DNA from: a virus
Reading direction: 5' to 3' (one strand)
IMG/VR virus record: IMGVR_UViG_3300035670_000014
Span: 32,001-96,000 of that record
Length of the DNA stretch: 64,000 nucleotides
Under the pieces are notes generated by a model. The model worked only from the letters and a program-made list of their open reading frames with translations. It was not told the origin of the DNA and did no database searches. This document shows positions 3,817-55,976 of this stretch, piece after piece. The position numbers and the translations under genes were made by a program. The first letter of the stretch is position 1. Every line of letters begins with the position of its first letter.

Positions 3817-3825
3817 GGCTTTAAG

Positions 3826-7953: not shown

Positions 7954-7968
7954 TTCAATACTTATCCC

Positions 7969-10603: not shown

Positions 10604-11000
10604 AGTCAATTGGACAAAATATACGGAAGACGGTAGAAGGGTTTCTAATGCTGATCTTTCTGTATTGGATAATGATACTGATCTGGTTAATCTTACAGTC
10701 TACTACAACATCACGGAATTCTCGATAGGTCTTAGTGGGAAATACAATCTGTTCCATATGTACACAATGGACACATTAAACAACTCAAAAAGTCTATGTG
10801 GTGTAAAGGTTGAGGTTTTACTAAAAGAAGAAGTAGATAATATTTACTTTAGAAGAATAGGAAGCAAAGTTCTCATTTCTTCAGATAAGGTTGAAGAGAG
10901 TCCTCTTTTTGAAGCGGCTCAAAAGCAACCAATGAAAGGAAATAAAAAAATAACAATATTCCTATATCCATCTGGCAGGATTAAATGGAGAACTAAATGA
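10581..11000 (+). CDS. Hypothetical protein
   Basis: ORF in operon; the real start may be ATG at 10587 or 10590; overlaps the next start codon. Confidence 0.5.
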   Translation: MDMMKKHEVNWTKYTEDGRRVSNADLSVLDNDTDLVNLTVYYNITEFSIGLSGKYNLFHMYTMDTLNNSKSLCGVKVEVLLKEEVDNIYFRRIGSKVLISSDKVEESPLFEAAQKQPMKGNKKITIFLYPSGRIKWRTK

Positions 11001-18616: not shown

Positions 18617-18617
18617 T

Positions 18618-18953
18618 ATGCCATATCATTATCTAAATAATACAGATATATCTGGAGGAGGTGGTGGTGGAGGTACACTTGGTGTAGCCACTGTTTGGGC
18701 CACTGCTCCAACTATTACATTCCCGACTACCTCTCTAAGAGATGGAGATATATTCTCAGCAGACTCCTTAGGATTTACAGGATCAAGTGGAACTTTTAGA
18801 TATGACCTGGATGCTGGTATCTGGTTTCTTATATATGGAGTATTTGCAACAGAAGCAGATATGACTTCCTTTACTACTGATGTAGACAATGACATAGCAG
18901 AAGATGCAGTTCTAATTGTAAGTTCTGACCTATCAGGAGACTTAATCTCATGA
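18618..18953 (+). CDS. Small protein carrying most of one copy of the fibre repeat
   Basis: ATG at 18618 right after the previous stop. Poly-Gly linker then RDGD...G..RY..G.W.LI.G.F.T.A.M..F, matching the repeat in the next gene. Confidence 0.6.
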   Translation: MPYHYLNNTDISGGGGGGGTLGVATVWATAPTITFPTTSLRDGDIFSADSLGFTGSSGTFRYDLDAGIWFLIYGVFATEADMTSFTTDVDNDIAEDAVLIVSSDLSGDLIS

Positions 18954-30056: not shown

Positions 30057-30998
30057 TTACAGTCTTGTATGGAATCCTAAACCTGCTCCATAGGACCCAG
30101 GGCCAGTCCATTGGACGAATGGAGAAATCCACAAGTCTGAAATAAAAGGAATTGGATTACCCAGGTTATAAGAGAAAGGCATAAGGTTAAAATTAAATTT
30201 ACCTATAGAGTTAAAGCCTAAACTCATATCAAGGAAAGACCACTCATCTTCTCCAGATTGATCTCTAAGATACATATAACCCACTCCCAAAGAGGCCTGA
30301 GGCACCATTCTAGGGTCTCTAAATGGAACCCCTAGCCCTACCCCTAAAGTAAGATTAGGACGCATATGAAAGCGTTCTAGAGGCTTAGAATCTTGTGTGT
30401 TATAGCTTGTATCTATCCTGAAAGAAGGATCAACAACTGTTGTCGAGTGGACTGGCAAGACATAAGGATTGCCGTTTGAAAGCAAAGTTAATCTTGTCAC
30501 AGTAGTAAGAGATCTCTCATCAGTTTGAACTATAGAAGTATCAACATTTATATCTAGATCATAAGAAGTAGTAGTCAGGTTACCTAGCTCTGTCAAAGCG
30601 ACAGAGCCAACTGGAACCTGGACTTCATCAAAGTCTACAATTAATTCCTGTTGCACAGGAGTAACTGTTTGACCTGGCTCAGTCACTACAATTACCTCAG
30701 TCCTTCTACCTGAAGAAGAGGCAACTGTAGTTGACTGGCCTATGAGTTCATAGTTAAGCCTTGATAGTTCTTCCTGGAGAACTCTAAGCTCTTCCTCTAG
30801 AAGGATGTAATCTTCCATATCTATATAGGCTGTATCTGCCATATGGAATCCGGGAGAGATCTCTCGTCCTTCTATGGGCGCAGGATCTTTAAGTGGCTCC
30901 TTCTTATTGCAGTTCTTAACCAGAAGAATCAAGCAAGTAATGATAAGCGCAAGATTAAAAATCTTGTAAGTCCAGTAAAGAATTTTATCCAGAATCAT
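30057..30998 (-). CDS. Membrane-anchored coiled-coil protein with C-terminal amphipathic beta-strands
   Basis: SD GAGGA and ATGA overlap with the primase stop. N-terminal TM, coiled coil, then alternating-hydrophobic strands ending YGAGLGFHTRL. Confidence 0.65.
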   Translation of the reverse strand: MILDKILYWTYKIFNLALIITCLILLVKNCNKKEPLKDPAPIEGREISPGFHMADTAYIDMEDYILLEEELRVLQEELSRLNYELIGQSTTVASSSGRRTEVIVVTEPGQTVTPVQQELIVDFDEVQVPVGSVALTELGNLTTTSYDLDINVDTSIVQTDERSLTTVTRLTLLSNGNPYVLPVHSTTVVDPSFRIDTSYNTQDSKPLERFHMRPNLTLGVGLGVPFRDPRMVPQASLGVGYMYLRDQSGEDEWSFLDMSLGFNSIGKFNFNLMPFSYNLGNPIPFISDLWISPFVQWTGPGSYGAGLGFHTRL

Positions 30999-33553: not shown

Positions 33554-34549
33554 TTAGTCGTTTTTTATAGAGTTAGATAGAAGCTGCCTCAATGCACCTT
33601 GTATCGTTTCTCTTGGCTTTGTCACTATGAAGCCGGCTTTATAAAGTAAAGCTTGAAGCTGGGCATAGTGGCAGGGCGGATTGTCTCCAAGCCCTAGCCT
33701 GTGTACTAGGGTTATTCTATTTATAGGATCTAAAGAATACAAAGCTTCGTTCATAGAAACAATTAAAGTTTCAAAGTCAAGTGTATCCCTAAGATACTCT
33801 ATCTTACCAAAAGAGTCTTCATCAAAGTAATCTTCAGATTCAGACTCTGATTCAGATGACTCGTCTTCTGAGTATGAATCAGAGATATGATTCAAAGGGT
33901 TAAAAGAAAGAATGTAGTTGAGTAAAGCTTCAGCTTTCTTATCACTGAAGCCAAACTCTTCAACAACGTATGATATTGCATCATTGTTTATGGGTATATC
34001 ATTCTTCTTAACAAAAGCAAGGACCTTGCTTACGTCAGTAAGTACATGAACTGGGAGTCTGATTACTCTGTTCTTGTTGCTTATAGCCCTTGTAATTGCC
34101 TGTCTAATCCACCAGGTGGCATAGGTGGCTAGCTTCACACCCTCATCAAGATCAAAGCGCTCTATGGCCCTTATAAAGCCTATAACGCCCTCTTGAAAGA
34201 CATCATCAAATGGAAGACCGTTGTTTTGATAATACTTGGCATTCTTTATAACAAGCTTAAGGTTATGCTCTACAAGTTTATTCCTAAAGGAATTTGCTTT
34301 CTTAAGCATGTCGCTGTTATCTAGAATGTAATCTATTTCTGCAAGATCATCCATGTAGAAAAGATTTTCTATTGCAGATTCATTCAGTAGTATCTGCTCT
34401 TCAATTCTCTTCTTCTCTTTTAGTAACTGTGCCCTGGTGTTATAAGCACACTTAAATACAGTTAAGTAGTGAGCTTCCTGTTCCTTTGTAAGTCGAGGAT
34501 GCTTGTTAATAAAAGAAGATATAAAGTTTAAGGTTGTTTGTTCTGACAT
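33554..34549 (-). CDS. Sigma70-family RNA polymerase sigma factor (RpoD-like region 2)
   Basis: NLKLV..AK.Y..NGL.F.D..QEG.IG..RA.ERFD...G.KLATYATWWIRQAITRAI...R.IRLPVH. Confidence 0.93.
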   Translation of the reverse strand: MSEQTTLNFISSFINKHPRLTKEQEAHYLTVFKCAYNTRAQLLKEKKRIEEQILLNESAIENLFYMDDLAEIDYILDNSDMLKKANSFRNKLVEHNLKLVIKNAKYYQNNGLPFDDVFQEGVIGFIRAIERFDLDEGVKLATYATWWIRQAITRAISNKNRVIRLPVHVLTDVSKVLAFVKKNDIPINNDAISYVVEEFGFSDKKAEALLNYILSFNPLNHISDSYSEDESSESESESEDYFDEDSFGKIEYLRDTLDFETLIVSMNEALYSLDPINRITLVHRLGLGDNPPCHYAQLQALLYKAGFIVTKPRETIQGALRQLLSNSIKND

Positions 34550-36102: not shown

Positions 36103-37425
36103 TCACTCAAATATGTTAATTGTTTTTATGTAATTAAAGTTGCTAATATCAGGACGGATATTACCATCTTTATCTTGGTAAATAACTGCATAGCCAACTA
36201 TAGAAGGTCTCCTTCTAAACTCAGCTTGCTTAAGGTAGCCTTGGGTCAAACATAGTGCACCTTGCTCTATGAGCAGTTTATTCTGCTCTATAAGCTTAGC
36301 TTGCTTATGTGTATGCCCCATTACGATAGAGTCAAATGAATTCCATGGCAATTGGCCTCTTAAATATTCCATGCCTCTTGTTACAGTAGCACCAGGCTGT
36401 GCAAGGTATGTATCAGGATGCATGAATATAGTCTTACCTACCTTGCCTAGCCAAGGTAAGCCTAGTTCGTTGTAGTAAACATTGGTGAAGTTGTAAGACC
36501 TACCAGTAAAACCGTTCTCATCTAGAATGAGGCCTTTAGATAGTTTATCAACAATATCGCGATTTCCAAGTATTGCTGAATAAGGGTCAAGCTTTTGGCT
36601 GAGATATCTATCAACTCTATTTTCATGATTACCCTTTACTAAGTGAACTTCGTCAAATCTGGAAGCCATTTCCTTAATGAAATTCAAGGCAAGCTGATAT
36701 TCTGACTGAAGAGGTATGCCCTTATCTTTTGAATAAGAAGATACTGAGTAACAGTCAAGTATGTCTCCGTTAAGAACAAGTATGTCTGCATTACCATCAT
36801 GCTCAAGTGCCATCTCTATTGCTTCAGTGTCATGGAAAGGCATGTGTAAGTCAGACAGGCTTAGTATTTTTCTTGTAGCCGGATTAGTAGAGAAGTAAAC
36901 TATCCCTGGTTTAGTTTTAGATAAGTACTCATTTCTTGCTGACATGTACTGCTCTGTAGCAGCAGCAGCCAAGTCAACCTTCGCTGCCTTTGCCGGCTTA
37001 ATCTCAACAGGAGCACAAGCTTCCTGGGTAGCTTCAGCTGTAGCAGAAGCTGCAACAGAGGCATCGCTAGACGAAGAGCTTCTAAGGGCATTTGACCTAA
37101 GGTTACAAGCTACATACCCAGGGGTTACAATCGGAAGATTGTCCATGTTAATTTCAGGAAAGTCCTGAGACTTAAAATGATGCCAAAGATTTGAGTAAAT
37201 AGAATTAATCAAACCAGCAGTAGGCCTGAATAGAAACTTAATATTAAAAGCATTAACTTCCATGACATGCATGTCAGAGTTCCTAATGCCTTGCTTGGGA
37301 TGTATATTGCAAATTGTATTTACCTTCTTTGCAGTATAGAAACCAAGTGAGCCATAGTATTCAAGTAAGCTTTCTCTTGTTTTAAATTCAGAAGGTTTTT
37401 TTAAGTTTAGTTTATTATTCGACAT
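36103..37425 (-). CDS. Calcineurin-like metallophosphoesterase with an N-terminal extension
   Basis: SDLH, NGDILD, GNHE, MHP, MGHTH motifs. Confidence 0.88.
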   Translation of the reverse strand: MSNNKLNLKKPSEFKTRESLLEYYGSLGFYTAKKVNTICNIHPKQGIRNSDMHVMEVNAFNIKFLFRPTAGLINSIYSNLWHHFKSQDFPEINMDNLPIVTPGYVACNLRSNALRSSSSSDASVAASATAEATQEACAPVEIKPAKAAKVDLAAAATEQYMSARNEYLSKTKPGIVYFSTNPATRKILSLSDLHMPFHDTEAIEMALEHDGNADILVLNGDILDCYSVSSYSKDKGIPLQSEYQLALNFIKEMASRFDEVHLVKGNHENRVDRYLSQKLDPYSAILGNRDIVDKLSKGLILDENGFTGRSYNFTNVYYNELGLPWLGKVGKTIFMHPDTYLAQPGATVTRGMEYLRGQLPWNSFDSIVMGHTHKQAKLIEQNKLLIEQGALCLTQGYLKQAEFRRRPSIVGYAVIYQDKDGNIRPDISNFNYIKTINIFE

Positions 37426-37427
37426 GT

Positions 37428-39860
37428 TTACCCATTGATAAATTTAATAACGCCGTTCTGTTTAAGTCTAAGAACTGCGGATCTTTCATCTACGCTGTAT
37501 TTAAAGTAGATAATAGACCCTACTTTAATCTTATCTTTATACTCCTCAACTGCATTTGGAAAGAGTGTTAGCTCAGCAACACCCGTCTTGTCCTCAACAG
37601 TGCAAGCATAAAGAGACTTGCCCTTCATCTTGCCTCTTTTTATCTGAATGTCCTCTATTCTGGTGATTACAACTAAACACCTACCAGACTGAGAGACCTG
37701 AGGTACGAGGTTATTAATGTAATCAAGTTCTATAGTAGGCGGTATTTTAATAAAGTCAATAGGGTGAGCTGAAATATATAAACCACAGTACTCACCTTCC
37801 CAGTCTACCATCTGCTTTGTGATTGATCTCTTTTCATAAACAGGAAGTTCAGGAAAAGAAGGCTCTTCTTTTGGCTTAGGAATTATAGGCTTCTTCGGCT
37901 TAGGCTCTGTATATATTTGCTTAGTACCATTCTCATCTATGACGGGAGTGGCAAGTCTGGTTATTACTTTAGTCTTGTAAAGATATTCCCAGTTAGCAAC
38001 TTCTATAGACCATTGCTCTAGTTCTTTATTCTTTAATTTTATATTAGCCTGATTCTCAAGATAAGAATCATACTGATTAAAGTAATCTAGAAGCAAAGGA
38101 AGTGAATCAACAAGGTCTTCTCTCTTGTGACCAAAAGCATCCAGTGCGCCTACTTTAGCAAGGATCGCCAAAGAGCCAGAGTTAACCTTTGATCTGTTGA
38201 TATTAGATAGCCAGTCCTTGAGAGTCTTAGCCTTGTGTACATTGCCGGCGATTAGATAGTTCGCCACAGATTTACCTATACCTTTTAGAATATCAATGCC
38301 AAATCTTATCTTGTTAGCTCCAACCTTGGCAAAGCCAATGTGAGGAGTAGTAACAGAAGGAGGAAGCATTTCTATTCCCATCGCTCTACACTCGTCTATA
38401 TAGGACTTAAGTTTATCTGGCTTATTAGACCTGAGACTCATAAGCTCAATCATAAACTCTACTGTAGAGTAAGCCTTTAGATAGGCGCAAGAGTAAGCTA
38501 TCAATGCATAAGCATAAGCATGTGGCTTGTTAAAGCCATAGCCTGAAAACTTATCAATGTATTCCCATACATAGCTTGCTTCACTCTCTGTAATCTTAGA
38601 GTTCTGAATGCAACCTTGAATAAACCTATCCTTCCACGACTGCATCTCTACTGGGTCCTTCTTACCCATTGCTCTTCTTACATTGTCAGAAGTCTCTTCA
38701 GAGAAGCCAGCAAGAACAGAAAGTGCAGCCATGCACTGTTCCTGGTAAACAAGAACACCGCCTGTCTCGGCTAGGACTGAATCAAGAAGTGGGTGAATCT
38801 TATTCTGAAGTAAGCCTGTTTTCTTGTACTCAATCCAGTCGTCAGTAAGACCATTGTCTTTAGGACCCGGTCTGATTAGTGCGCTAATAGCAGCTAAGTC
38901 TGCAACAGTAGTAGGCTGAACCTCGCTAATAACCTGGAATACATGGGACTCTTCCATCTGGAAAATGCCAGAAACAAATCCCTGGTTTATTAGCGTGAAA
39001 GCTTTAGGATCGTCAAGAGGAACCTCTTCCTGAATCCAGTCAACTGTTTTTCCGATTGCTGCTGTTGTATTCTTGAGTAGATCAAGGTTGTCAATAACAA
39101 GAATGTCAAACTTAATAAGGTTGCAATTCTTCTCAAGAGCGCCAGCTTCCCACTGAGATAAGTAGTACCAATTACCTTGATCATCTTTCTCTCCTTTAAC
39201 CTTACGTAAAGGGATATAGCTGTCCAAATAATCAGAGCCAATAATCACAGCAGAAGCATGCTGAGATTGATTCATAGGTTGCTTGTCCATTGTAGCAACA
39301 CATGAAAATACTTCTTTGTGCTGTTCTATAATCTCAGCGTAAACAGGATCATCCTTAAGGTCAATCCAGGTAGTTGCCTTACCACGATAGCTATCAGGCA
39401 GGCTGTCAGCCAAGGCGCGACCTTCTTCAAAAGTTCCACCTAGTGCTTTTGTAAAGTCAACTGTAGAACTCTTAACAGAATAAGGAGTATAAGTAGTAGG
39501 TCTAATAACACAAAGTTCACCATATTTATTCTGTAATTCTTTTATAATTACATCTTTCCCTGATGGAGAAAAGTCTGTATCTATATCTGGTCCTGCGCCA
39601 GTTACAGTAGAAGAACACCTCTTAGACTTGTCATAGTTATCACTATCAGAAAACAAGTAGAGCAATATGGAGTTACTTTTATTCTCAAGCTTCTTATTGA
39701 TATACTTCTTATCTATTACAATGCGAGTAAAGTCTTCATCGGTGATATACTTTAACTCGAATAGCAAATACCTGAAAGGTACATTCAATGTATACTTTAG
39801 ATAATCTAGCTTCTCATTAGCTTCCCTATTAACAATCTCTAGTTTAGTTTTTAAGTCCAA
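37428..39860 (-). CDS. dnaE: DNA polymerase III alpha, C-terminal part (catalytic palm, fingers, HhH, OB)
   Basis: PDIDTDF, HASAVII, LIKFDIL, GIFQME, ALIRPGP, ETGGVLVYQEQ, GYGFNKPHA, IRFG..LKGIG, E....G.YISAHP. Likely TTG start at 39860 with GGAGA SD. Confidence 0.92.
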   Translation of the reverse strand: MDLKTKLEIVNREANEKLDYLKYTLNVPFRYLLFELKYITDEDFTRIVIDKKYINKKLENKSNSILLYLFSDSDNYDKSKRCSSTVTGAGPDIDTDFSPSGKDVIIKELQNKYGELCVIRPTTYTPYSVKSSTVDFTKALGGTFEEGRALADSLPDSYRGKATTWIDLKDDPVYAEIIEQHKEVFSCVATMDKQPMNQSQHASAVIIGSDYLDSYIPLRKVKGEKDDQGNWYYLSQWEAGALEKNCNLIKFDILVIDNLDLLKNTTAAIGKTVDWIQEEVPLDDPKAFTLINQGFVSGIFQMEESHVFQVISEVQPTTVADLAAISALIRPGPKDNGLTDDWIEYKKTGLLQNKIHPLLDSVLAETGGVLVYQEQCMAALSVLAGFSEETSDNVRRAMGKKDPVEMQSWKDRFIQGCIQNSKITESEASYVWEYIDKFSGYGFNKPHAYAYALIAYSCAYLKAYSTVEFMIELMSLRSNKPDKLKSYIDECRAMGIEMLPPSVTTPHIGFAKVGANKIRFGIDILKGIGKSVANYLIAGNVHKAKTLKDWLSNINRSKVNSGSLAILAKVGALDAFGHKREDLVDSLPLLLDYFNQYDSYLENQANIKLKNKELEQWSIEVANWEYLYKTKVITRLATPVIDENGTKQIYTEPKPKKPIIPKPKEEPSFPELPVYEKRSITKQMVDWEGEYCGLYISAHPIDFIKIPPTIELDYINNLVPQVSQSGRCLVVITRIEDIQIKRGKMKGKSLYACTVEDKTGVAELTLFPNAVEEYKDKIKVGSIIYFKYSVDERSAVLRLKQNGVIKFING

Positions 39861-40248
39861 AGTAATCTCCGTAATCAGGTAAAGTTTCAGACAAAGCACC
39901 AAGGGTAGCAAGAACAGAGAACTCAAAAGTGGTAATACCGAAAGGAACAAACTCTAAAAGTCTAATTGAGTTTAGAATGTCAAGTTTATCAAAGTTATTT
40001 ATAAGAACAGATCCATAACTTGTCCTGTCTGCATTAATCACTTTAGTTATTCCTCTTATTTCCCTTACGGCAAGTTCAACAAAAGGTCCCTGAAAAGTTG
40101 GTGGAGATATATATGTTCCATTGGTTAATCCGGCAATGGTTACTATATAGAAATATGCAAGATTGTGACTTCTTGAATACCATGTAGGAAAACAATAGAT
40201 TGAAGAATCATCAAAATCTAATTTAAAGTAAGATTTGTTTTCACTCAT
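39844..40248 (-). CDS. Orphan protein between the two dnaE halves
   Basis: ATG overlaps the end of dnaE-N (ATGAGTGA); its stop overlaps the dnaE-C start. No intein or homing-endonuclease motif recognised. Confidence 0.65.
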   Translation of the reverse strand: MSENKSYFKLDFDDSSIYCFPTWYSRSHNLAYFYIVTIAGLTNGTYISPPTFQGPFVELAVREIRGITKVINADRTSYGSVLINNFDKLDILNSIRLLEFVPFGITTFEFSVLATLGALSETLPDYGDYFGLKN

Positions 40249-41491
40249 CAAGCTCACCACAGAAGTCAAGAGAAACTTTAACTCTACCTGGGTTTAAGAA
40301 TCTTGAAAAGTAAAATCCATTAGCAATGGGGTCCATATGCTTACCAGTAAGACCCAAAGCCCAAGCAAGGAGAGAGCCACCAGATGAACCTCTACCTGGG
40401 CCAACTGGTATGTCGTTATCTTTAGCTATCTTAATATAGTCAGCAACCATTAAGAAGTAAGAGTTATAAGAGCTATCATCAATCAGATCAATCTCGAACT
40501 TTAGTTGCTTCTTATAAGCGGGAGGAATTGGATCAGTATCTGACAAGTTAAGCCTAGACCTGAGGCCTTCAAAGGCCAGTCTCTCAAGCTCATAGAAAGC
40601 TTCCTCGTTTGACATATGGTCAAACTTAATAGGCGGATTCTTAATAGATGAAAAGAAGTAAGAGCTATCTACCATGTCTGCAACATAGCCAGTATTGTGC
40701 ACTGCTTCCTCGGGTATGTTCCATTGCCTACATAACTCCAAAGCAAAGTCTGTATCATACAACCATGCATTGTAGTCTTGTATTGGATACTTAGAATCCA
40801 GATAAGACATGTGCCATCCAATGCACTGAACTAGACCTCTAAGTTTCCATTGATCTTGATCTGACTGGTGGGCGTCAGCAGTAAGAACCAAGGGAACATT
40901 ATGCTTCTTAGAAAGAGGAATAATAAGCTGATCATTAAATTGTTTCTGAAGGTCAACATTATTAACTTGAACTTCTGCAAAGAAGTTATCTCGGCCAACA
41001 ATATCTCTAATCTTCAAGAACCATTCTTCTGCGAGGTCTAACCTGTTAGCTTTAAAGAATGTTGCCATGTGGCTGGATAAGCAAGTAGAAGTAACTATAA
41101 GGCCATCACAATGCTTAGAGAAAGTCTCTATGTCAATACGAGGAAACCTGTGAAAGCCATCACTAAAGGCATAAGTATTAAGCTTAAGTAAGTTCTTATA
41201 GCCTGTCTCATTCTTTGCAAGGCAAAGAAAGTGTCCGTTATTACCCCAGTCCTCATGTGTCTTTTCAGTAGCAGGGCCAAAAGAAAGATAAGTTTCGTTG
41301 CCAATGATTGGCTTAACTCCAGCTTTCTGACAGCCTTTTGCGAATTCTAGAACACCTGATAAAGTACCATGGTCACTTAATGCACAAGCAGTCATGCCTC
41401 TAGACTTGACAACATCACCAATCTTATCCGCTCTCTGAATGCCGTCCTTTAGAGAATTACTCGAATGAACATGTAAATGTACAAATGGCAT
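40241..41491 (-). CDS. dnaE: DNA polymerase III alpha, N-terminal part (PHP domain + start of palm)
   Basis: FVHLHVHS, ALSDHG, KPIIGNE, LAKNETGYKNL, PRID, ADAH, VGPGRGSSGGSL, FSRFLNPGR, then a stop. Confidence 0.93.
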   Translation of the reverse strand: MPFVHLHVHSSNSLKDGIQRADKIGDVVKSRGMTACALSDHGTLSGVLEFAKGCQKAGVKPIIGNETYLSFGPATEKTHEDWGNNGHFLCLAKNETGYKNLLKLNTYAFSDGFHRFPRIDIETFSKHCDGLIVTSTCLSSHMATFFKANRLDLAEEWFLKIRDIVGRDNFFAEVQVNNVDLQKQFNDQLIIPLSKKHNVPLVLTADAHQSDQDQWKLRGLVQCIGWHMSYLDSKYPIQDYNAWLYDTDFALELCRQWNIPEEAVHNTGYVADMVDSSYFFSSIKNPPIKFDHMSNEEAFYELERLAFEGLRSRLNLSDTDPIPPAYKKQLKFEIDLIDDSSYNSYFLMVADYIKIAKDNDIPVGPGRGSSGGSLLAWALGLTGKHMDPIANGFYFSRFLNPGRVKVSLDFCGELDE

Positions 41492-41603: not shown

Positions 41604-42509
41604 TCACTTAAAGATTTCAATCATCAGGTCAACCAAAGGATGACGCATTACCTTCCTTAGATTTACCCAGGAAGTATAAGGTGACTGAAGATAAAGTGGA
41701 TGATTAACCATAGAGATTAGAGAGTTCTCTCCTTGAAGTCTACGGGATGCTTTATCATCTTGCTTAGTGTCTCCCATGAGTACAAGCTTAGAGTTTTTAC
41801 CTATTCTTGTGCTTAGGGTTTCAAGTTGACGTCGCCCAAGATTCTGGGCCTCATCACATATAACCAAGGCATTGCTAAAGTCAACGCCTCTCATATGCTC
41901 CAAAGGAATAATCTGTATTACGCCTTTGTCAATTAAAGTCTGTATAAATGTAGCTGAATTGTTACCAAGTATTTTGTTAAGTGCGATGTTGTAGCTAATC
42001 ATCTGAGGAGACATCTTCTCAAAGATGCCACCAGGGACTTCGCCCATAGCCTCGTCGTCATCGTCATGCACCTGCGTCCTAGGTTTAGTTAGTACAAGGG
42101 TGTCATAAACTTTATTGGTAAAGACTGAGTCGACAGCAAATGCCATAGTAAGCAAAGTTTTACCTGAGCCTGCATTGCCAGTAATAACATTACATGCAAT
42201 GTCAGGATTGCGAAGAGACAATAGAGCAATCTCTTGCTCTAGATTAGCTGGACGAACTTTAACGCTCTTTCCAATAGTGCCCGAAGGGCTTGGAACAGCA
42301 ACAATAGAGTCAGCTCGATACAAGACTATTTGAGATTTATTACCAGACCTAAAGCATCTATACTGATTGACACCAGGTATAGATAGTATAGCTTCCTCGT
42401 CTGATAAATCAAGACATAAGTTACGAATTTCGTCGTAAGTTATAGATCCATGGTCGTCAAGAAACTTTAAAATAATTGGATCAATTAAGTCCAAAACTAA
42501 TTCTGACAT
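41604..42509 (-). CDS. phoH: PhoH-family ATPase
   Basis: N.EQ.IAL, GNAGSGKT, MGEVPG...EKM.P, MRGVDF...ICDEAQN, TRIG..SKLV.MGD..Q. Confidence 0.9.
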   Translation of the reverse strand: MSELVLDLIDPIILKFLDDHGSITYDEIRNLCLDLSDEEAILSIPGVNQYRCFRSGNKSQIVLYRADSIVAVPSPSGTIGKSVKVRPANLEQEIALLSLRNPDIACNVITGNAGSGKTLLTMAFAVDSVFTNKVYDTLVLTKPRTQVHDDDDEAMGEVPGGIFEKMSPQMISYNIALNKILGNNSATFIQTLIDKGVIQIIPLEHMRGVDFSNALVICDEAQNLGRRQLETLSTRIGKNSKLVLMGDTKQDDKASRRLQGENSLISMVNHPLYLQSPYTSWVNLRKVMRHPLVDLMIEIFK

Positions 42510-43718: not shown

Positions 43719-44839
43719 TACTTCACCTTTAACATTGAACTGAAATAAGCATCTTGCTTAAGGGTCTTTAGGATTGAGCGACCACTATCAGTTCTTGTTA
43801 TGTAAGTCAAGCAGGCAGAGAATAATTCGGGAGATTCTTTCTTAAGTCCTTGAAGTACAAGGGAAAGATTGGAAGTGTAGGTAACAGACTTCTTAGAATT
43901 TATAATGACGTCCATCAAGTCAGTCTGGCAAATCTCATCAACTATATTAATATAGTCTACAGATATAAGGTCCTTAATCTTGTTGGGATCTTCTAGAAGA
44001 TCTATTACACTTATTTGCTTCTGATAGAACCTTGACAGGTAAATGGCAGTATTAACCTTACCTATCAGGCCGTCAGATAAAGCCTCGACTGCAAGTATGA
44101 AGTCTGTTCCTTCAATGGAAATATTGTTATGCTGAGACCTGTAGGATTCAACATAGTCAAATATTCTCTTAAAGTTTGTCAAAGACCTCGGACACAGAGC
44201 AGAGTAGGAACTTATTGATTCTATATCTGCAGAAGATGTAGCTATAGGTTCAGAGATAGAAAAGTGAGAATAAGATACAAGTGACTTAAACTCAGAATCA
44301 GAAGAATCTAAAGTTGCAGATACAAAAGATTCTTTGTTAGACTCTACATAAACATGAGAGAATCTATTCTTCTCTTGTTCCTTCAGAGGCGAGCCACCGA
44401 ATCTTGCAATGTCGTAATTACCTGCAGCAAAGATTACTGTATTAGCAGGCAAAGGATACTCATGCAGGATTCTTTCTGAAAGCATTTGCATTGAGGCTGC
44501 CCTTTCCTGCTTAGCACCGAGTGGATACTCGTCAAGGAATAATACAAATAATCCTTTGAAGTCAGAAGTAGGAAGCCAGTGTGGCCTTGATCTTCGATTA
44601 ACTTTATGTCCGTTTACTTCTATGAAGTAGGGAATACCCCACTCGTCGGGCTGACAATCAGCTAGGCGTAAATCTACAAACTTTAAGTCAATTTTATTTG
44701 ACTCTGCAAACTTCTTGGCAGAAGATGCGATTATGGAGCTCTTACCTATACCGCTAGGGCCCCAAAAGAAAGTATCAATTTGACATTCTAAAGCAAGAAA
44801 GCATACCTGTTCCATCAGGTCGATGTCAATGGTTATCAA
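43718..44839 (-). CDS. MoxR-like AAA+ ATPase
   Basis: Walker A GPSGIGKS, DLRL, Walker B LFLDE, AAGN, NRF, PRS; coupled to the vWA gene. Confidence 0.88.
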   Translation of the reverse strand: MITIDIDLMEQVCFLALECQIDTFFWGPSGIGKSSIIASSAKKFAESNKIDLKFVDLRLADCQPDEWGIPYFIEVNGHKVNRRSRPHWLPTSDFKGLFVLFLDEYPLGAKQERAASMQMLSERILHEYPLPANTVIFAAGNYDIARFGGSPLKEQEKNRFSHVYVESNKESFVSATLDSSDSEFKSLVSYSHFSISEPIATSSADIESISSYSALCPRSLTNFKRIFDYVESYRSQHNNISIEGTDFILAVEALSDGLIGKVNTAIYLSRFYQKQISVIDLLEDPNKIKDLISVDYINIVDEICQTDLMDVIINSKKSVTYTSNLSLVLQGLKKESPELFSACLTYITRTDSGRSILKTLKQDAYFSSMLKVK

Positions 44840-45953
44840 AAGCAGGCTCCAGGCTAATTAAGCTATCAATATCAGTAGCAGGTATTTGAGCTATCTGCTG
44901 CTTTCTATGAAGGAAATCTCTTGCCTCAATCGGGGGCAAGGAATGGGCAGATGAAAGCTTAGCAAGCAACTCTGAATTACTTCTGAGTAGTTCGTAAAAC
45001 TTATCACCTTGACCCTTAAGTAGAACTTCACCAGTCTCAGGGTCAATAATTGTGTACCACTTGTTTGCGCCAAGTAGGAACCAGGGACTCTTACACCTGA
45101 TAAAGTAATTTATCAGTGACTGAATTCTGTCAATGCCGTAGTTGTGAACTACAGAGAACGTGCAAGTGGCGTGAACCTGAGCAGCTGTCTTACTCTTGAT
45201 AATAGTAGCAACTCTAGTGTCATCTTTAGAGTTAGGCTTTGTAAGTTCTATCCTTACGTCTGGATAGAATACTGCAGCCCTGCCGCCGCTAGCATTATTA
45301 CCTCTAGCACCCATTGGGGTAATGTTAACCCTAAGCTGATTTGCCATCAGGAAGAGAACATTGTTCTGTGCTGCCGAGTTCTTTAGAAACTTAAGAACAT
45401 CTGTGCCGAACCTGGCTAGAGCGCCTACGCTCTGATTGCCGATCTCTTCTGCTTTCTGCTCTGTAGGAGTCTCTATGGCAGCCCATGAATCTATTGCAAT
45501 AACAGCAACAGCTCCTGATTCCATCAAGTCCATTGCAGTATTAACAATCTCTTGGCCGTTAATAGATGGGTCAATGATAACCCGACCTTCATACCATGGG
45601 TCACCAATAAGAAAAGCAGCATACTCTCTGTCGAGAGTACCTTCTACGTCAGCAAGGTAAGCATACTTAGTTGGATACTTCTTCAGTACTTGGGCAATAG
45701 TCTCTAGAATAAGAGTAGATTTGCCGCCTGAGAAAAGGCTCTCTATAGAATACATTCTACCCATTGCAAAGCCACCTCCTAGAAGTGAGTCTAGCTCTGG
45801 GTCATTAAGAGGAACAAGTTCCCAGTCAGGAACATCAAGAGATGACAGCAAATGATTAGTCTTCCTTGACTTAGAAATAGCGTCAATAATGGCTTGAACT
45901 TTTTTAGATTCGTTTGATGAAGTGGGTTTTTCTTCTTGTGCTTTTCTTGCCAT
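44826..45953 (-). CDS. recA: RecA/UvsX recombinase
   Basis: LDSLLGGG...GR, SGGKST, D.EG.LD..YA, IAIDSWAA, VGALAR, ANQLR, SGGRA..FY..VRI. Confidence 0.92.
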   Translation of the reverse strand: MARKAQEEKPTSSNESKKVQAIIDAISKSRKTNHLLSSLDVPDWELVPLNDPELDSLLGGGFAMGRMYSIESLFSGGKSTLILETIAQVLKKYPTKYAYLADVEGTLDREYAAFLIGDPWYEGRVIIDPSINGQEIVNTAMDLMESGAVAVIAIDSWAAIETPTEQKAEEIGNQSVGALARFGTDVLKFLKNSAAQNNVLFLMANQLRVNITPMGARGNNASGGRAAVFYPDVRIELTKPNSKDDTRVATIIKSKTAAQVHATCTFSVVHNYGIDRIQSLINYFIRCKSPWFLLGANKWYTIIDPETGEVLLKGQGDKFYELLRSNSELLAKLSSAHSLPPIEARDFLHRKQQIAQIPATDIDSLISLEPAFDNH

Positions 45954-47121: not shown

Positions 47122-49119
47122 CTAAAACTTAACAACGCATCCAGTAGAGTCGCAGTACTTCTCTCCTACTCCCTCTTCGTTAGAAGACAGAGTCATACTA
47201 GAAGTATCAGTAATAGATGCAAGCATCTCATTATACTTAGCTTCATCTATTGCCTCATATGGAGCCTGGATGTAACCAGTCTCAGAAAGCTTTAAGAAAG
47301 AAATAGTTTTAAGCTCGGAGTCGAAAGCTTCGAGGACAGGCTTAATTTGATTTGCTTCATCTTCCTTAAATGTTACAGTTACACTGACTGAGTTATCAGC
47401 CCAATACTTCTGCAGGTCAGCGCAAAGCTTTACCTGCTCCCATATGGTTACATCAAACTTAGTCTTGGTAAAGTACTTTTCCTTAACAGGAAAAGATACA
47501 ACCATTGCATTAGAACCGTAAGCATCAGGCTCAACATGATAGCCCATCTGGATAAAGTCCTGAACCATGGGATTATCATTAGCAAATCTAATCCGGCGAA
47601 TATAGTACTCACTCTCTGGATAGTGCATACCAGGTGTAGCACCTGCAAGCAAGCTTACAGAACCAGAAGGCTTCACCGTTGTGAGCTTCTTGCTCCTTGG
47701 AATACAGAGCCAATCTGAGTAGGACTCATCCCAAGACTTGATTAAGCTATACAAGTATGATGAATTGTCCATAAACTTTCTATAGCCAAACTTGGCAATG
47801 GCCTGAGTTATTCCTGACTGGCTGATTCCGAGTCTTCTGTTCTTTAGCATTACAGCATTGGTCTTGGGCCAATGAGTATTGGTCAAAGTAACAGACTTGT
47901 TGTAAAGGTAAGCAAGCTTACCTATAGATACAAGCTCCTCAATAGAATCAAGATGAGCAGGGAATATTTCTACAAGGTTACAGAGCTCTCTGTTCTCAAG
48001 AGTAATCTCTGCACAAGGATTTACGCCTTTAACTTTGACATCAAAGTTTCCTTTGCCATCTAAAGTACGGCCGTAATGTCTTGAGTTATCAAGCCAGTGA
48101 AATCCAGGTTCGCCATTGATAACACACTGCTGAGATAGTTCAGAGTAATCCATACCCGGTGTAGCAGTAACAGTATTGTTACTATTCCAGCGCCAAGCAT
48201 AAAGTTTCTCTTGATCATTCTTAAGCAAAGTAAACACCTTATCTTCTGGATCGCCAATAGCAATTGCAGCAGAACGTCTTACGTTACCAGCAACAACACA
48301 TCGACCAATAACATTCTGTGTATCCACGATAAGTTCAGAGTCAATAAGCTGACCTACTTTAGCGTTCCATAATTGACGTATAGTCGTGTGTAAAAGCTTT
48401 AAAGGCTCAGGGCCAGAGGATGTACCTCCAAAGCGAACAATAGCACATCCAGCATCTCTAAGCAAGCTATAGTCAAAGACTACCGTAGCAGTACCATCAA
48501 TATAAGAATTAACCAAATGCTTAACTGATTCAGCCCAGCCTTCTCTGGAATCAGGAATAGTGTAAACAAATGTTTCATTAGGATTAGGAGCCTTAACGTG
48601 TAGGCGTCCAGCACCTAAAGTGTCGTAACCTACACCAATGCCAAGCATAAGGGCATCCATAATCCATTCAAAGATTTCACCTTTGTCTGTTTCAATTGTC
48701 TCAGTAGAAATAAAAGAACAATTATAAAGAGCAGCACCAGTACGCTCCATAACATACCGAGTTCCCATCATCCATAAGCCTCTACCTGGAGGTAGAAACT
48801 TAAAGTTGAACATGGCATCGTACATAGCTTCAGCAGTAGCGTTAGCTTTAGATTCTATCCATGGAAGTCCTGCATTTTTACAGTGATCTTTCTGTATAGA
48901 GAATACACCATTAACTACACGCTGAATGCACTCATGCCATTCTTCTGTCCTTTGTGGATCAAAGGATTCATGCCTCTCTTGCATCCGTCGAGAGTAAGTT
49001 CTCTTGAATGTAATGTATCCTACAGGGCCCCAGTCAATAGACCGGGTAGCATAAGAGTCTACAAAGTCTTGATTAAGTTGAAAGCTAAGATGGGGAAAGT
49101 AGTTAATTTCTTGATGCAT
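47122..49119 (-). CDS. nrdJ: Class II (adenosylcobalamin-dependent) monomeric ribonucleoside-triphosphate reductase
   Basis: TFKRTYSR, PPGRGLW, NCSF, PDSREGW, VVAGNVRRSA, NPCAEITL, CNLVE, TTVKPSG, C-terminal CDSTGC. Confidence 0.93.
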   Translation of the reverse strand: MHQEINYFPHLSFQLNQDFVDSYATRSIDWGPVGYITFKRTYSRRMQERHESFDPQRTEEWHECIQRVVNGVFSIQKDHCKNAGLPWIESKANATAEAMYDAMFNFKFLPPGRGLWMMGTRYVMERTGAALYNCSFISTETIETDKGEIFEWIMDALMLGIGVGYDTLGAGRLHVKAPNPNETFVYTIPDSREGWAESVKHLVNSYIDGTATVVFDYSLLRDAGCAIVRFGGTSSGPEPLKLLHTTIRQLWNAKVGQLIDSELIVDTQNVIGRCVVAGNVRRSAAIAIGDPEDKVFTLLKNDQEKLYAWRWNSNNTVTATPGMDYSELSQQCVINGEPGFHWLDNSRHYGRTLDGKGNFDVKVKGVNPCAEITLENRELCNLVEIFPAHLDSIEELVSIGKLAYLYNKSVTLTNTHWPKTNAVMLKNRRLGISQSGITQAIAKFGYRKFMDNSSYLYSLIKSWDESYSDWLCIPRSKKLTTVKPSGSVSLLAGATPGMHYPESEYYIRRIRFANDNPMVQDFIQMGYHVEPDAYGSNAMVVSFPVKEKYFTKTKFDVTIWEQVKLCADLQKYWADNSVSVTVTFKEDEANQIKPVLEAFDSELKTISFLKLSETGYIQAPYEAIDEAKYNEMLASITDTSSMTLSSNEEGVGEKYCDSTGCVVKF

Positions 49120-49797: not shown

Positions 49798-50823
49798 CTA
49801 TTTCCTGCCTCTTAAGCTAGAGACAAACAGTAATTCTTTATTCCTTAAATGGCTCACTTCTCCTACTACTTCTCCGCTAGGATTATAGATTCCAATTTGT
49901 GCGCCCACATAACGCTTGAAATCTTTTTCAATAACCATGAGGTCAGCGTCACGCTCTAGTAAGATTTGTTCAATCTGTTCGCGGCTTAAGTATCCTTCGT
50001 CATTGAAGGATACTACTAAATGGGGACACTTAGCAGAAGAAACAATATGACGTAAACCTGATTCAGCTTCACGTTTCCGATTAAAAATACTTGATCTCTC
50101 TCGAACATCAACGCGCTTACAGGCTATTCCATACACTTCCGGCTTGTCCCACAATACCAGAGATTCCCAAATATGGTAGTTTCCCAGGTAGTTGTGCTGG
50201 TTGTACGGTGGGTCAATATAGCAAATATCAGCATCGAGAGTGCCAACTATATCGAGTGCATCTCCCTGGTTGGCTTCTCCTTTTCCAGATGCAGCCCTAT
50301 TTAAAATATTTGGCAAGCGCAAATTGAGATCATTGTTTGACCTTGCTGCCCATTGCTTCAAGTAGGCCATCTGAACGCCAGTCGTCGAGTCGACACGGTC
50401 AGCTGCTTCCATGAGTGAAACGAGAACCACGGCTCTCAGTTCAGGTTCGAGTCCCATCTCCTCGATACGCTCACGAATAGCATCAATCCGTTCTCCATTT
50501 TTAGGTTGGAAGAATCTACTATTTTCGCAGAATGTTTCAGTGAAATATCCTGGACGGCCAGGTATTTGATTCAGTTCTGTAATAATTCTTAGTGCGTCGT
50601 CAGCACAATCTTCTCGATCTGCAACAACGTAGCACTGTGCCAACTCCTTTGCATATGCATTGAGGTCGTTTGAAATTACTCTATAACCTGCCCCCTTAGC
50701 AGCATGACCTACCCGACTAGTACCTGAGAATAGGTCGACGACCGTACCACTAGGAGTCAGCTGCTGAAAGGTTTCAATAATAGTTGGTAATAGGGTTCTT
50801 TTAGAACCTAGATACTTGATCAT
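49798..50823 (-). CDS. N6-adenine DNA methyltransferase (D12/Dam-like class), orphan
   Basis: IKYLGSK, VDLFSGT, SND, YIDPPY...Y..NYH, VSFNDEG. Confidence 0.9.
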   Translation of the reverse strand: MIKYLGSKRTLLPTIIETFQQLTPSGTVVDLFSGTSRVGHAAKGAGYRVISNDLNAYAKELAQCYVVADREDCADDALRIITELNQIPGRPGYFTETFCENSRFFQPKNGERIDAIRERIEEMGLEPELRAVVLVSLMEAADRVDSTTGVQMAYLKQWAARSNNDLNLRLPNILNRAASGKGEANQGDALDIVGTLDADICYIDPPYNQHNYLGNYHIWESLVLWDKPEVYGIACKRVDVRERSSIFNRKREAESGLRHIVSSAKCPHLVVSFNDEGYLSREQIEQILLERDADLMVIEKDFKRYVGAQIGIYNPSGEVVGEVSHLRNKELLFVSSLRGRK

Positions 50824-51554: not shown

Positions 51555-51995
51555 TTAGAATTGATCCATTTCGTCATCAATAATGTTCCAGGGGTCCTTT
51601 TCTTGCCCTTTCAGGGCGGGTGAGTTAATCTTAGCTGATGCCTTCTCTCTATATTCTTGAGGAATCTTAGAGTTAGATGGATTACTTTGAGGCCTTGGAG
51701 TCGAGGCAACAGAAGATCCAGAAACCTTTCGGTTATAGGCATCAAGTATTTGTCTTGAAAATTCAGGTCCTAGTTCCTCGCCTAGAACTTCTACGATGTT
51801 AACGTACTTGGTAGTACCATCGTTAGCCTGGTATGAGCGACTCGGGGCAGATACAAATGCATCGCCCTTCTTGCTCTTGATTATCTTGTAATCATTAACT
51901 TTAAGTAAGTTATTGAAAGTTACAGTAACCATACCAAGGATTGAAGAGTTTGACTTAGGAATGTAAACCTGAACATCTGTAATTTGTAATGACAT
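51555..51995 (-). CDS. spoVG: SpoVG-family nucleic-acid-binding protein with an acidic C-terminal tail
   Basis: ITDVQV...LG.VTVTFN..L.V.D.KII....G.FVSAPSR...Y..IV...I..AY, then a linker and DDEMDQF. Confidence 0.85.
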   Translation of the reverse strand: MSLQITDVQVYIPKSNSSILGMVTVTFNNLLKVNDYKIIKSKKGDAFVSAPSRSYQANDGTTKYVNIVEVLGEELGPEFSRQILDAYNRKVSGSSVASTPRPQSNPSNSKIPQEYREKASAKINSPALKGQEKDPWNIIDDEMDQF

Positions 51996-52004
51996 TTTTA
52001 TACC

Positions 52005-52346
52005 TTATGAATGTATTGTTAAATAACCTGAAGAGTGTAGAACACTCAATAGCGTTGGAAATGCTGATGCAAGCTCTATGCTAGGTATTAGCATGTCTTC
52101 TGCAAGTACCTCTATTGCATCATAGTGCTTAAGGCCTGACTTAAGCATTTGAATAATAATAGCCGATGAATGGCCTGAAAGGCTAGCTGCAAGGCTATAC
52201 TTATCCTTTAGGTCCGGTATAGAGTTTATTATTCCTTCAATGTTTTCTGCCTCTGAGTCATCCATAAACATATGAATGAACTGCTCCAAAGACATAGGAC
52301 CAAGGCCCGGTAAGTCTACTAATACTCTAAGTGGATTAATCTTCAT
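52005..52346 (-). CDS. Hypothetical protein
   Basis: ATGA-coupled ORF. Confidence 0.6.
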   Translation of the reverse strand: MKINPLRVLVDLPGLGPMSLEQFIHMFMDDSEAENIEGIINSIPDLKDKYSLAASLSGHSSAIIIQMLKSGLKHYDAIEVLAEDMLIPSIELASAFPTLLSVLHSSGYLTIHS

Positions 52347-52861
52347 TTATTAACCTGATTGAGTAACCTGTAAGAAGGAATCTTAATCATATACTTCCTC
52401 AAGAAGTATGTAATCAAGCCAGGAGTATAGACAGGTATGAACTTCCTACCTGTACTAAATGATTCCTTATGTACCATGGAGTAGTTAGTTGCAAAATCTA
52501 AGAACCAACAATACTCAGGTAAATACTTAACATTAGAATAACTAATGTAAAGATTCCTACTTCCACTAACACCAATCCAACCAGACCAGATGTTAGAAAC
52601 GTCTGGATAGTAGTTGTTAAATTGATGAATTAAAGAATGCAAGTTACACTCTTGCTCTGGGACTTCTATATCCAAAGTAGAAGATTGGGGATGCTTCTTG
52701 TAGAAAAGAAAAGAATACATAAACATATTCATTCTTTCCAAGTCTAAAATATAAAGCTCAGTAGGGCGATAGTAAGAAACTATCAGTTCCCTGAGGAACT
52801 TTAAATTATTTAGCACAGAAGTAAAGTAGAACTTTATATATTTGTATATACTAGAATCCAT
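52343..52861 (-). CDS. Hypothetical protein
   Basis: Overlaps both neighbours. Confidence 0.55.
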   Translation of the reverse strand: MDSSIYKYIKFYFTSVLNNLKFLRELIVSYYRPTELYILDLERMNMFMYSFLFYKKHPQSSTLDIEVPEQECNLHSLIHQFNNYYPDVSNIWSGWIGVSGSRNLYISYSNVKYLPEYCWFLDFATNYSMVHKESFSTGRKFIPVYTPGLITYFLRKYMIKIPSYRLLNQVNK

Positions 52862-53336
52862 ACCAACCTATAATTTGAGGAAGTGAAGATTTGCACAGCT
52901 CAATAAACACAAGCCACTCGCCATAAGAGAGTGGTAGCATTACTGAACTGGATGTAGCTTCATCACCAATCTTAAGAAGTCTTGATTGATAAAACTTAGA
53001 TGATGAATCATTATTTAATTGAATAGTAAGCTTCTTACCTGGCTTCTTAGCACCTGGGGTATTACCTCCAGGTACATGATAGAGGTTTAGATCGTTATTA
53101 AGTTTGTCTGCCTCTAGTAGAGATTGAATGTCAGCAATGCCTAGAGAAAACTTTATTTTCTTAGCATCTGACCAGTCATAAACCTTGTTATCCCAATCTT
53201 TACATGGAGCAAATTCCATATAGACCGCACCGCTTCTTGCATCCTTGTAACCTCCGTCCGTACCGGTCTTAAAAGGTATGAAAGATACTTGAAGTGCTCC
53301 GCTCTTTTTATAAGTTTGCCATTGCCCTCTAGCCAT
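52851..53336 (-). CDS. Whirly-domain ssDNA-binding protein
   Basis: Colinear Whirly motifs: YKKSGAL, GAVYMEFAP, YDW, KIKFSL, LYHVP, KKLTI, LPLSYGEW.VF, LPQIIGW. SD GAGGA. Confidence 0.8.
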   Translation of the reverse strand: MARGQWQTYKKSGALQVSFIPFKTGTDGGYKDARSGAVYMEFAPCKDWDNKVYDWSDAKKIKFSLGIADIQSLLEADKLNNDLNLYHVPGGNTPGAKKPGKKLTIQLNNDSSSKFYQSRLLKIGDEATSSSVMLPLSYGEWLVFIELCKSSLPQIIGWYGF

Positions 53337-53628
53337 TTGTTCCTCTTTTGTAATTAATAAAGTTTCTTAAGGTTAATAAAGTTTGGAGAAGGTAGCTATG
53401 AATCATAGGACTTATTGCATCATGGCTTTCAGCCTTCTCTAGATAGCTAATAGTAGTATCTATATTTGTATAGTCAAGGTCTGTCAGTTCCCCCACGATA
53501 TATAAATTGTGAAAGATAAGAGAATATATTAGCTCATCAGACTTGATAGGCTGAGGCCAAGATTCAATTACTTTAAAAGTCGAGTCAGCCAAAGACTTGG
53601 CTAGCTCAGGAAAAACAATTTTAGACAT
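53329..53628 (-). CDS. Hypothetical protein
   Basis: Coupled to the Whirly-like gene. Confidence 0.6.
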   Translation of the reverse strand: MSKIVFPELAKSLADSTFKVIESWPQPIKSDELIYSLIFHNLYIVGELTDLDYTNIDTTISYLEKAESHDAISPMIHSYLLQTLLTLRNFINYKRGTNG

Positions 53629-54932: not shown

Positions 54933-55907
54933 CTAATCAGAAAGTATGTTTAGGAACAAAGAGATTTTCTCATGAAGCTCACTTGCTTCACTAGAAGTTA
55001 TAGTATAACCTTGTTCTTTCTTCAATAGAGAAACAACATTATCTATCTCATAAGAATGCAGTAAGACTTTATTTAGCAACTCTTTTAGAGCAGCTATGTC
55101 TGCAGAAGAAAGAGTAAGGGCATTGAATATGTAATCTCTTGCTGCCTTTATTGTAGCAGGAGCAAGAAGTTCTATATACTCAAGCATTTTATTTGCAATA
55201 ACTCTTATCTCGAACTGAGCATCAGAAGCAGTCCTTAGTCTTAAGAAGTGCAATAAGTTATGCAAGTCCATAGTTACAACAAAAGATGTGAAAGTAGCAG
55301 TAGGGAGTATACCTCTTGCTATTTCTCGTGAAACTCCTGCTTCAAGTAACTTTGTATAAGACTCATAAGAGGAGCTAATGGAGTCCCTATAGCTATCATG
55401 TAAGTCTTTCTGATCTTCAAGGTAACTTGAAGTATCAGTGCATTGTTTATTTTGTTTATGCTGGCCAAAGAAAGCATAGGGCTCATAGATCTTATCAGGA
55501 GCCTGACTATATCTATAGGATGCCTGATTATACTTGCCAGTTCTGTGTCTCATAAACTGAGCAGCAACATAGAGCGGACACTCAATGTCAAATGTAAACG
55601 AGACATGTTCAAAAGGACTAGTATGTTTATCTCGCAACAATCTCCGAAGGAGAGCAACATCGCTGGACTTCCTGGAGGTTCCCTTAGAGTAAGATCTCCT
55701 CGCAATATCTACAATGTGAGAATCTAAAGGACTAAGTGTTGAGTTCCAGTCATCCTGTATTACTTCAAGAGGAAAAGCACCAGGGCTAGCCTCTATTAAA
55801 GTAACAGAACCAAGATAGTAAGATTTATTATCAGAGTCAACTCTTTCAATAGCTGGCTCAATGTGAGAGACTTTAGAAAGTACAGAGTAGAGTGGTGATT
55901 GTGTCAT
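54933..55907 (-). CDS. thyX: Flavin-dependent thymidylate synthase
   Basis: AR.SY, HTSPFEH, QFMRHR...NQASYRY, GV.RE.AR..LP, NLLHFL.LR...AQ.EIR. Start moved to ATG at 55907, downstream of the terminator. Confidence 0.93.
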   Translation of the reverse strand: MTQSPLYSVLSKVSHIEPAIERVDSDNKSYYLGSVTLIEASPGAFPLEVIQDDWNSTLSPLDSHIVDIARRSYSKGTSRKSSDVALLRRLLRDKHTSPFEHVSFTFDIECPLYVAAQFMRHRTGKYNQASYRYSQAPDKIYEPYAFFGQHKQNKQCTDTSSYLEDQKDLHDSYRDSISSSYESYTKLLEAGVSREIARGILPTATFTSFVVTMDLHNLLHFLRLRTASDAQFEIRVIANKMLEYIELLAPATIKAARDYIFNALTLSSADIAALKELLNKVLLHSYEIDNVVSLLKKEQGYTITSSEASELHEKISLFLNILSD

Positions 55908-55928
55908 TATATTGCTACCTAATAAAGT

Positions 55929-55950
55929 AAAAAAAATAGCCCCGAAGGGC
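55929..55950 (-). terminator. Intrinsic terminator with a C(UUCG)G loop
   Basis: GCCC-TTCG-GGGC-TA-TTTTTTTT on the minus strand. Confidence 0.8.
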
Positions 55951-55976
55951 AAGGCTTTAATAAGACTAAAGTCTTA

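Follow-up and report, generated by a model that had tools for sequence, protein, structure and literature searches.

A bare Whirly-domain protein encoded in a complete phage genome and its probable role as an accessory binder of single-stranded DNA

Whirly proteins have been described in reviews as plant-specific (PMC9070903), and a 2024 study placed their origin in the ancestor of Chloroplastida/green plants (PMC11135702). The locus reported here raises the question of whether a phage also encodes a member of this family and, if so, what the protein does there. The virus record IMGVR_UViG_3300035670_000014 is a complete phage genome of 170,948 bp, with direct terminal repeats and a rating of 100% complete. 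The stretch analyzed (hereafter the window, 64,000 nucleotides) corresponds to bases 32001-96000 of this record. A minus-strand ORF at 52851-53336 of the window had been predicted to encode a phage Whirly protein, and this assignment was borne out by the profile search, the predicted fold, the predicted tetramer and the phage nature of the genome, as described below.

The ORF extends from an ATG at 53336 to a stop codon at 52851 and encodes a protein of 161 amino acids with a pI of 8.95. A reading-frame check found the plus strand across 52851-53336 to be closed by many stops. The Whirly-like motifs quoted in the original prediction were all present in the minus-strand translation, namely YKKSGAL, GAVYMEFAP, YDWS, KIKFSLGIADI, LYHVP, KKLTI, MLPLSYGEWLVF and LPQIIGW. 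The Shine-Dalgarno sequence GAGGA was read at 53341-53345 on the minus strand, 4 nt 5' of the ATG, and the start is kept in the closest relative (MSSGQWQVYKQ, compared with MARGQWQTYKK in the window protein). As the Whirly domain starts at residue 9, the protein has no transit peptide, in agreement with the bare domain that had been proposed. An orthologue of the plant type would be the product of a nuclear gene with an organelle-targeting peptide, whereas this one, with its domain starting so close to the N-terminus, is encoded in a phage genome behind a Shine-Dalgarno sequence.

Sequence comparison confirmed the 161-aa ORF as a true Whirly-family protein made up of the bare domain, with a likeness far beyond chance. 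The Pfam profile PF08536 (Whirly) matched with 50.3 bits (E 2.9e-13), when compared to a curated cut-off of 23 bits, and the match covered positions 2-133 of the 136 in the profile. The search against this profile had been proposed as a check, and its outcome was positive over the whole domain. In phmmer against the PDB sequences, the significant matches were all plant Whirly proteins, led by AtWHY1 (1.4e-8) and followed by WHY3, PBF-2 p24, AtWHY2 and StWhy2. A profile built from 30 bare-domain relatives matched potato PBF-2 p24, WHY1-3 and StWhy2 at E 2e-24 to 1e-22, and hhalign against 20 eukaryotic Whirly members aligned 146 columns with a probability of 99.95% (E 1.6e-38). No PF00436 (OB-fold SSB) match to this ORF came up in the Pfam scan, which extended to E 0.1, and PHROGs contained no family for the protein.

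The conserved residues also agreed with the family assignment. Within the phage set, little or no variation was seen at K10, G36, W55, K60, F63, D69, H87, K101, E140 and G157, and these align with the YK, G-x-hydrophobic-FAP, YDW, K-x-x-FSL, FHDP, K-x-L-K, AEF and GW that are conserved in plants. The KGKAAL hallmark is not present as such: the window protein reads YKKSGAL, where the second Lys (K67 in StWhy2) is replaced by Ser12, while the first Lys (K10) is nearly invariant across the phage set and the consensus across the relatives is [YHF]-K-x-x-[GA]-A-hydrophobic. According to a 2022 review, KGKAAL is likewise missing from the Whirly-like proteins of algae and liverworts, indicating that the motif marks the higher-plant members and not the whole family.

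The AF2 model of the protein (pLDDT 92, pTM 0.85) showed the order bbbb-a-bbbb-a, that is, two beta4-alpha repeats. Foldseek against the PDB gave 16 significant matches, all of them plant Whirly chains (StWhy2, AtWHY1-3 and PBF-2), with TM of 0.70-0.78 and E of about 1e-8. PUR-alpha (E 4e-3, TM 0.37) and MRP1/2 (TM about 0.5) stood far below them. The protein was further predicted to form a homotetramer through helices 67-79 and 137-160. The four-copy prediction reached an ipSAE of 0.92, compared with 0.01 for the best control. Among proteins solved as pairs of one chain, 20 of 30 attained that mark, as did 1 of 23 among those solved as single chains. The contacts agreed by at least 95% among the tetramer runs, and the partner pLDDT was at least 88. 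An AlphaFold tetramer and a comparison with the solved Whirly structures had also been suggested as a check, and within the limits of predicted models a tetramer was obtained and the modelled fold had the plant Whirly proteins as its top matches; as the plant tetramers have already been solved, the prediction shows likeness to them and may stem from the memory of the model.

The Whirly gene sits in a block of genes for replication, recombination and nucleotide metabolism, all on the minus strand. The upstream 99-aa ORF (53329-53628) runs 8 nt into the Whirly gene, where its stop codon TAG overlaps codons 2-3, and the downstream 172-aa ORF (52343-52861) shares 11 nt with the other end of the gene, its ATG overlapping the Whirly stop codon. 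These overlaps suggest that Whirly lies in a tightly packed and probably translationally coupled operon. From the overlap, the 172-aa ORF is likely to be translationally coupled to Whirly. Neither neighbor had a Pfam or PHROG match, nor did the 113-aa ORF (52005-52346) located between Whirly and the SpoVG gene. The relatives of the 172-aa ORF were limited to a near-identical cluster, another at 78% identity and, in the related locus L002, a weak homolog at the corresponding position (E 0.004), and its AF2 model had a pLDDT of 35, too low for the fold to be read. A genome-wide search with Pfam Rad52 found none in the phage genome.

On one side of these ORFs lies the ThyX thymidylate synthase gene (54933-55952; PF02511, E 2.7e-50), which has the same position relative to Whirly in L002. 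On the other side, the order is a SpoVG-domain protein that has a disordered linker and ends in the acidic tip ...IIDDEMDQF (51555-51995; PF04026, E 2.5e-13), a Dam-type methylase (49798-50823), a class II ribonucleotide reductase (RNR, 47122-49119), a RecA-like recombinase (44826-45953; PF00154, E 6.3e-26), PhoH (41604-42509), two genes that make up a split DnaE (Pol III alpha; 40241-41491 and 37428-39950), a metallophosphoesterase (36103-37425), a sigma factor (33554-34549) and a DnaG-DnaB primase-helicase fusion (30995-33532). The RecA-like recombinase is the likely functional partner of Whirly.

Two other features of the window were observed. The split in DnaE falls inside the DNA_pol3_alpha domain, with profile positions 2-101 in the N-terminal gene and 102-259 in the C-terminal one. 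A 141-aa ORF (39844-40269) bridges the junction, and no intein domains were detected at the split genes by Pfam. At 967-18616 on the plus strand, large ORFs of 949, 1375, 666, 523, 922, 636 and 457 aa showed almost no PHROG or Pfam matches apart from one weak match to a 'virion structural protein'; this region is presumably a highly divergent structural module.

An exhaustive HMMER scan of 1.84 billion cluster representatives identified 159 clusters at E up to 1e-3. For the tree, 135 rows were kept, 86 of which consisted of the bare domain and 49 carried N-terminal extensions. The contigs of eight bare-domain relatives (P0002, P0005, P0009, P0019, P0153, P0136, P0112 and P0028; 31-44% identity), chosen from across the tree, were inspected, and all eight, on contigs of 11 to about 195 kb, lay in DNA-metabolism modules of the phage type. 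When the window was counted together with these relatives, SpoVG was located within about 2 kb of Whirly in six of the nine contexts, and a RecA-family gene within 10 kb in seven of only nine contexts. The closest arrangement was found in L010 (NCBI GCA_043955495.1, contig JBINOJ010001093.1, 195 kb, 'Acinetobacter sp.' MAG), where RecA is directly adjacent to Whirly on its upstream side. The same contig encodes an RNA ligase, a methylase, a ResIII helicase and a PolA that has UDG and carries an intein. Its Whirly, P0136, was deposited under the name of a hypothetical protein from an Acinetobacter MAG, and judging by the gene content the contig looks like a large (jumbo) phage binned into a bacterial MAG. 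In relatives of the phage, the RNR, RecA and PolA genes that lie near Whirly contain inteins or homing endonucleases (L011:13757-17269 and 18585-20537; L010:12985-16218; L005:19564-20540).

The SpoVG proteins linked to Whirly were themselves unusual in having a low-complexity linker and an acidic C-terminal tip that ends in an aromatic residue. Such tips were seen in L002:11384-11785 (...SDEWGDEF), L009:10920-11324 (...PDDDYQW) and L012:5771-6112 (...DPFDDDDEF), and in a weaker form in L003:11421-11765. Bacterial SpoVG is only about 100 aa long and is not known to carry such an acidic tail. The tips are similar to the docking tip found on bacterial SSB, and the proteins may serve as SSB-like hubs with a SpoVG domain as their base.

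In the ESM Atlas, the Whirly protein fell among clusters of 50-469 members whose known taxa were mostly Uroviricota. A tblastn search with the window protein, P0136, P0033 and P0009, which represent different subclades, found no match among 50,697 GenBank phage records, and megablast of 15 kb of the window against deposited phage genomes found nothing. With four subclade queries giving no match in so many phage genomes, the family appears to occur largely in uncultivated phages, and the lack of cultivated carriers probably accounts for its having gone unnoticed.

We consider it probable that the phage Whirly is a homotetrameric accessory binder of ssDNA that modulates recombination-dependent replication and repair. 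The ssDNA binding is inferred from the homology, the conserved residues and the pI, and the recombination role from the plant family. Probably expressed within the operon for replication, recombination and nucleotide metabolism and coupled in translation to its neighbors, the protein would assemble into a whirligig of four copies held together by the two helices. By analogy with the plant proteins, the tetramer would bind single-stranded nucleic acid, mainly ssDNA, on or between the beta-sheet blades. While replication and repair proceed by recombination, it could thereby cover strands that have been resected or displaced, modulate the RecA-like recombinase of the phage and limit spurious annealing at microhomologies, as the plant Whirlies do beside the organellar SSB and RecA. 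Plant Whirlies prevent spurious annealing (PMC3245945), and a 2026 preprint reported that Arabidopsis Whirlies stimulate RecA-mediated strand exchange while canonical mitochondrial SSBs do not (bioRxiv 10.64898/2026.10.24.761589). The phage has the same cast as the plant system, that is, an OB-fold SSB, a RecA-like protein and Whirly, which favors the accessory, recombination-modulating role.

The original prediction had left the choice between a viral SSB and a recombination regulator. The location of the gene within a replication module would suit a principal replicative SSB that takes the place of the OB-fold type, but the genome carries two PF00436 genes of its own, about 1.3 kb apart and outside the window (129602-129883 and 128079-128306 of the virus record, minus strand), which both score above the cut-off (E 1.6e-9 and 3.2e-9). 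A Gly-rich linker and the acidic tip ...SSEDEALPF are present in one of them, and the other is without an acidic tip, whereas Whirly ends in ...IIGWYGF with neither linker nor acidic tip. Both OB-fold SSBs were noticeably rich in Ala, Gly, Arg and Pro relative to the proteins of the AT-rich window, and a genome-wide search found neither gp32-type nor gp2.5-type SSB families. Because the phage has its own OB-fold SSBs, Whirly is more likely to be an accessory ssDNA binder or recombination modulator, and a role as the principal SSB appears highly unlikely. The regulator half of the prediction fits better with the linkage to RecA and SpoVG across the relatives, and the SSB half fits less well in view of the two SSB genes.

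The protein might instead act mainly on RNA or on gene expression, for instance by keeping hold of mRNA or of promoter DNA in single-stranded or hairpin form, in concert with its SpoVG-like neighbor or with a non-canonical transcription apparatus of the phage. ChmC, a phage tetramer of Whirly-type folds, favors RNA and works on mRNA (PMC11077065). Plant WHY1 also binds RNA, and its first description was as a transcription factor on single-stranded promoter elements. The SpoVG family has been reported to bind both DNA and RNA and is linked to Whirly in six of the nine phage contexts, and a sigma-factor gene belongs to the same block. Against this, ChmC shares only the fold while the window protein is closest to the ssDNA-binding Whirlies of plants, and RecA and the genes of DNA metabolism neighbor Whirly at least as consistently as SpoVG does; we therefore regard such a function as unlikely, if still worth weighing. 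A factor for counter-defense or host takeover, which would hide ssDNA intermediates of the phage from sensing by the host, or compact the DNA of either host or phage, and have no direct role in recombination, is brought to mind by the Whirly/PC4-fold domains proposed as single-stranded nucleic-acid sensors in Shedu and by the compaction of nucleoids by plant WHY1. The gene has nevertheless kept its position inside the core DNA-metabolism modules of deeply diverged phages (31-44% identity), rather than in variable accessory regions, and it has no recurring defense-related neighbors, so that this explanation seems the least probable of all. The accessory ssDNA binder that modulates recombination thus remains our preferred reading.

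The relationship to the eukaryotic proteins was analyzed with a maximum-likelihood tree of 130 rows (LG+C20), drawn from the best 150 matches of a phage query. The window protein and its sister P0002 (99/91) belong to a 57-row clade (98/95 support) in which all but one row consist of the bare domain and which includes three other phage proteins verified by context. The other side of the tree contains further bare lineages, including the phage-verified P0112 group, and a clade (99/88) in which the phage-verified P0028 and the likewise phage-verified P0136 group (98/89) are successive neighbors of a 40-row group (97/89). This group consists nearly entirely of proteins with long N-termini and was eukaryotic wherever checked: P0014 comes from EukProt, the P0018 cluster holds an MMETSP transcript, P0055 adjoins WD40/IFT-like and choline-transporter genes, and P0071 adjoins sestrin, LMBR1, Myb and RhoGEF-PH genes. 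As judged from the sequences in this tree, eukaryotic Whirly is one group and the remaining verifiable diversity is all phage-encoded. Recent capture of a plant or algal gene by this phage was rejected on the basis of the place of its protein in the phage-type clade, far from the eukaryotic group.

P0071 (224 aa), which branches basally among the eukaryotic proteins, is encoded at L014:8001-8675 on a 122-kb contig (JGI 3300062231), where an EGF gene accompanies the sestrin (PA26), LMBR1, Myb and RhoGEF-PH genes. These neighbors do not look like those of a plant, suggesting that Whirly may occur in eukaryotes outside the green lineage.

Under midpoint rooting, in which the root is not inferred, the eukaryotes were nested among the phage lineages. 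With this uninferred root, the high rates of the phage proteins and sampling from the best 150 matches, the tree does not give the direction of transfer. The suggestion that the locus bears on the origin of plant Whirly therefore held in part: the single eukaryotic group is flanked by phage lineages, while the copy of this phage lies outside the lineage nearest to the eukaryotes. We put forward two possibilities jointly and only tentatively, with somewhat more doubt than trust. Tailed phages might hold the main diversity of Whirly, the eukaryotic group having been acquired from a phage lineage related to P0136 and P0028; and the tail-less Whirly might pair with SpoVG, whose acidic tip would mimic the one used for docking by bacterial SSB. 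Twinkle and the phage-type RNA polymerase are phage-derived organelle factors, and if the proposal is true, Whirly would be another phage-derived factor for organelle genome maintenance beside them.

The presence of a sequence-level member in a complete phage genome widens the range of the Whirly family. At 50% identity, at least about 90 bare-domain clusters were found, and all nine with an inspected context were phage-encoded, making phage Whirly a candidate source of the eukaryotic gene. The combination of Whirly, RecA, SSB and SpoVG would also provide a minimal phage system for testing how Whirly modulates recombination, a matter of relevance to both plant-organelle and phage-recombination biology.

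The protein can be compared with several known systems. The OB-fold SSB (PF00436) shares with Whirly the presumed ssDNA binding, tetramer formation and a role in replication or recombination, but has an unrelated fold, and this phage encodes SSBs of that type itself. PUR-alpha and T. brucei MRP1/MRP2 belong to the same general fold class (PMC7549692), and the match to them here was weak in structure and absent in sequence. ChmC (PhiPA3 gp61 and phiKZ gp67, from the nucleus-forming chimalliviruses) is likewise a phage homotetramer of Whirly-type folds that binds single-stranded nucleic acid, but it has no detectable sequence similarity to known proteins, a bbba repeat, a disordered C-terminal region, a preference for RNA and a role in mRNA handling (PMC11077065). 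By contrast, the phage Whirly is a member of PF08536 at the sequence level and has no disordered tail. The closest neighbors of the window protein were thus the plant Whirlies, with higher TM than PUR-alpha or MRP1/2, and not the ChmC, PUR or MRP proteins. In the literature searched, no published description of phage members of PF08536 was found, as ChmC, the N-terminal domains of the bacterial Shedu defense and the PC4-like proteins share the Whirly fold only. A0A6J5NR37 of an uncultured Caudovirales phage, found in BFVD with TM 0.79/0.89, resembles the window protein in being a bare Whirly domain from a phage (31% identity). It differs in its length of 141 aa, in its subclade and in having automatic annotation only, under the UniProt name 'Whirly transcription factor'. 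The phage Whirly adds a new member to a known family, from a setting that published accounts have not recognized.

The plant organellar Whirlies (StWhy1 = PBF-2 p24, StWhy2 and AtWHY1/2/3; PF08536; PDB 1L3A, 3N1H, 4KOO, 4KOP and 4KOQ) are of the same sequence family as the phage protein, and share with it the predicted fold, the best structural matches and the predicted tetramer through the helices. The core residues of the plant proteins, namely the K of YK, the G of the third strand, YDW, the H of FHxP, the E of the last helix and the C-terminal GW, are also present in the phage protein. The phage protein differs from them in being phage-encoded, in having neither a transit peptide nor a C-terminal extension, in its identity of only 22-26%, in the operon beside SpoVG and in the phage clade (98/95) apart from the eukaryotic group. 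It also carries Ser where KGKAAL has its second lysine (YKKSGAL in the phage protein). In StWhy2 this lysine drives assembly into 24-mers, and its lack argues against such an assembly of the phage protein. In both plant organelles and the phage, Whirly is found beside a separate SSB and RecA.
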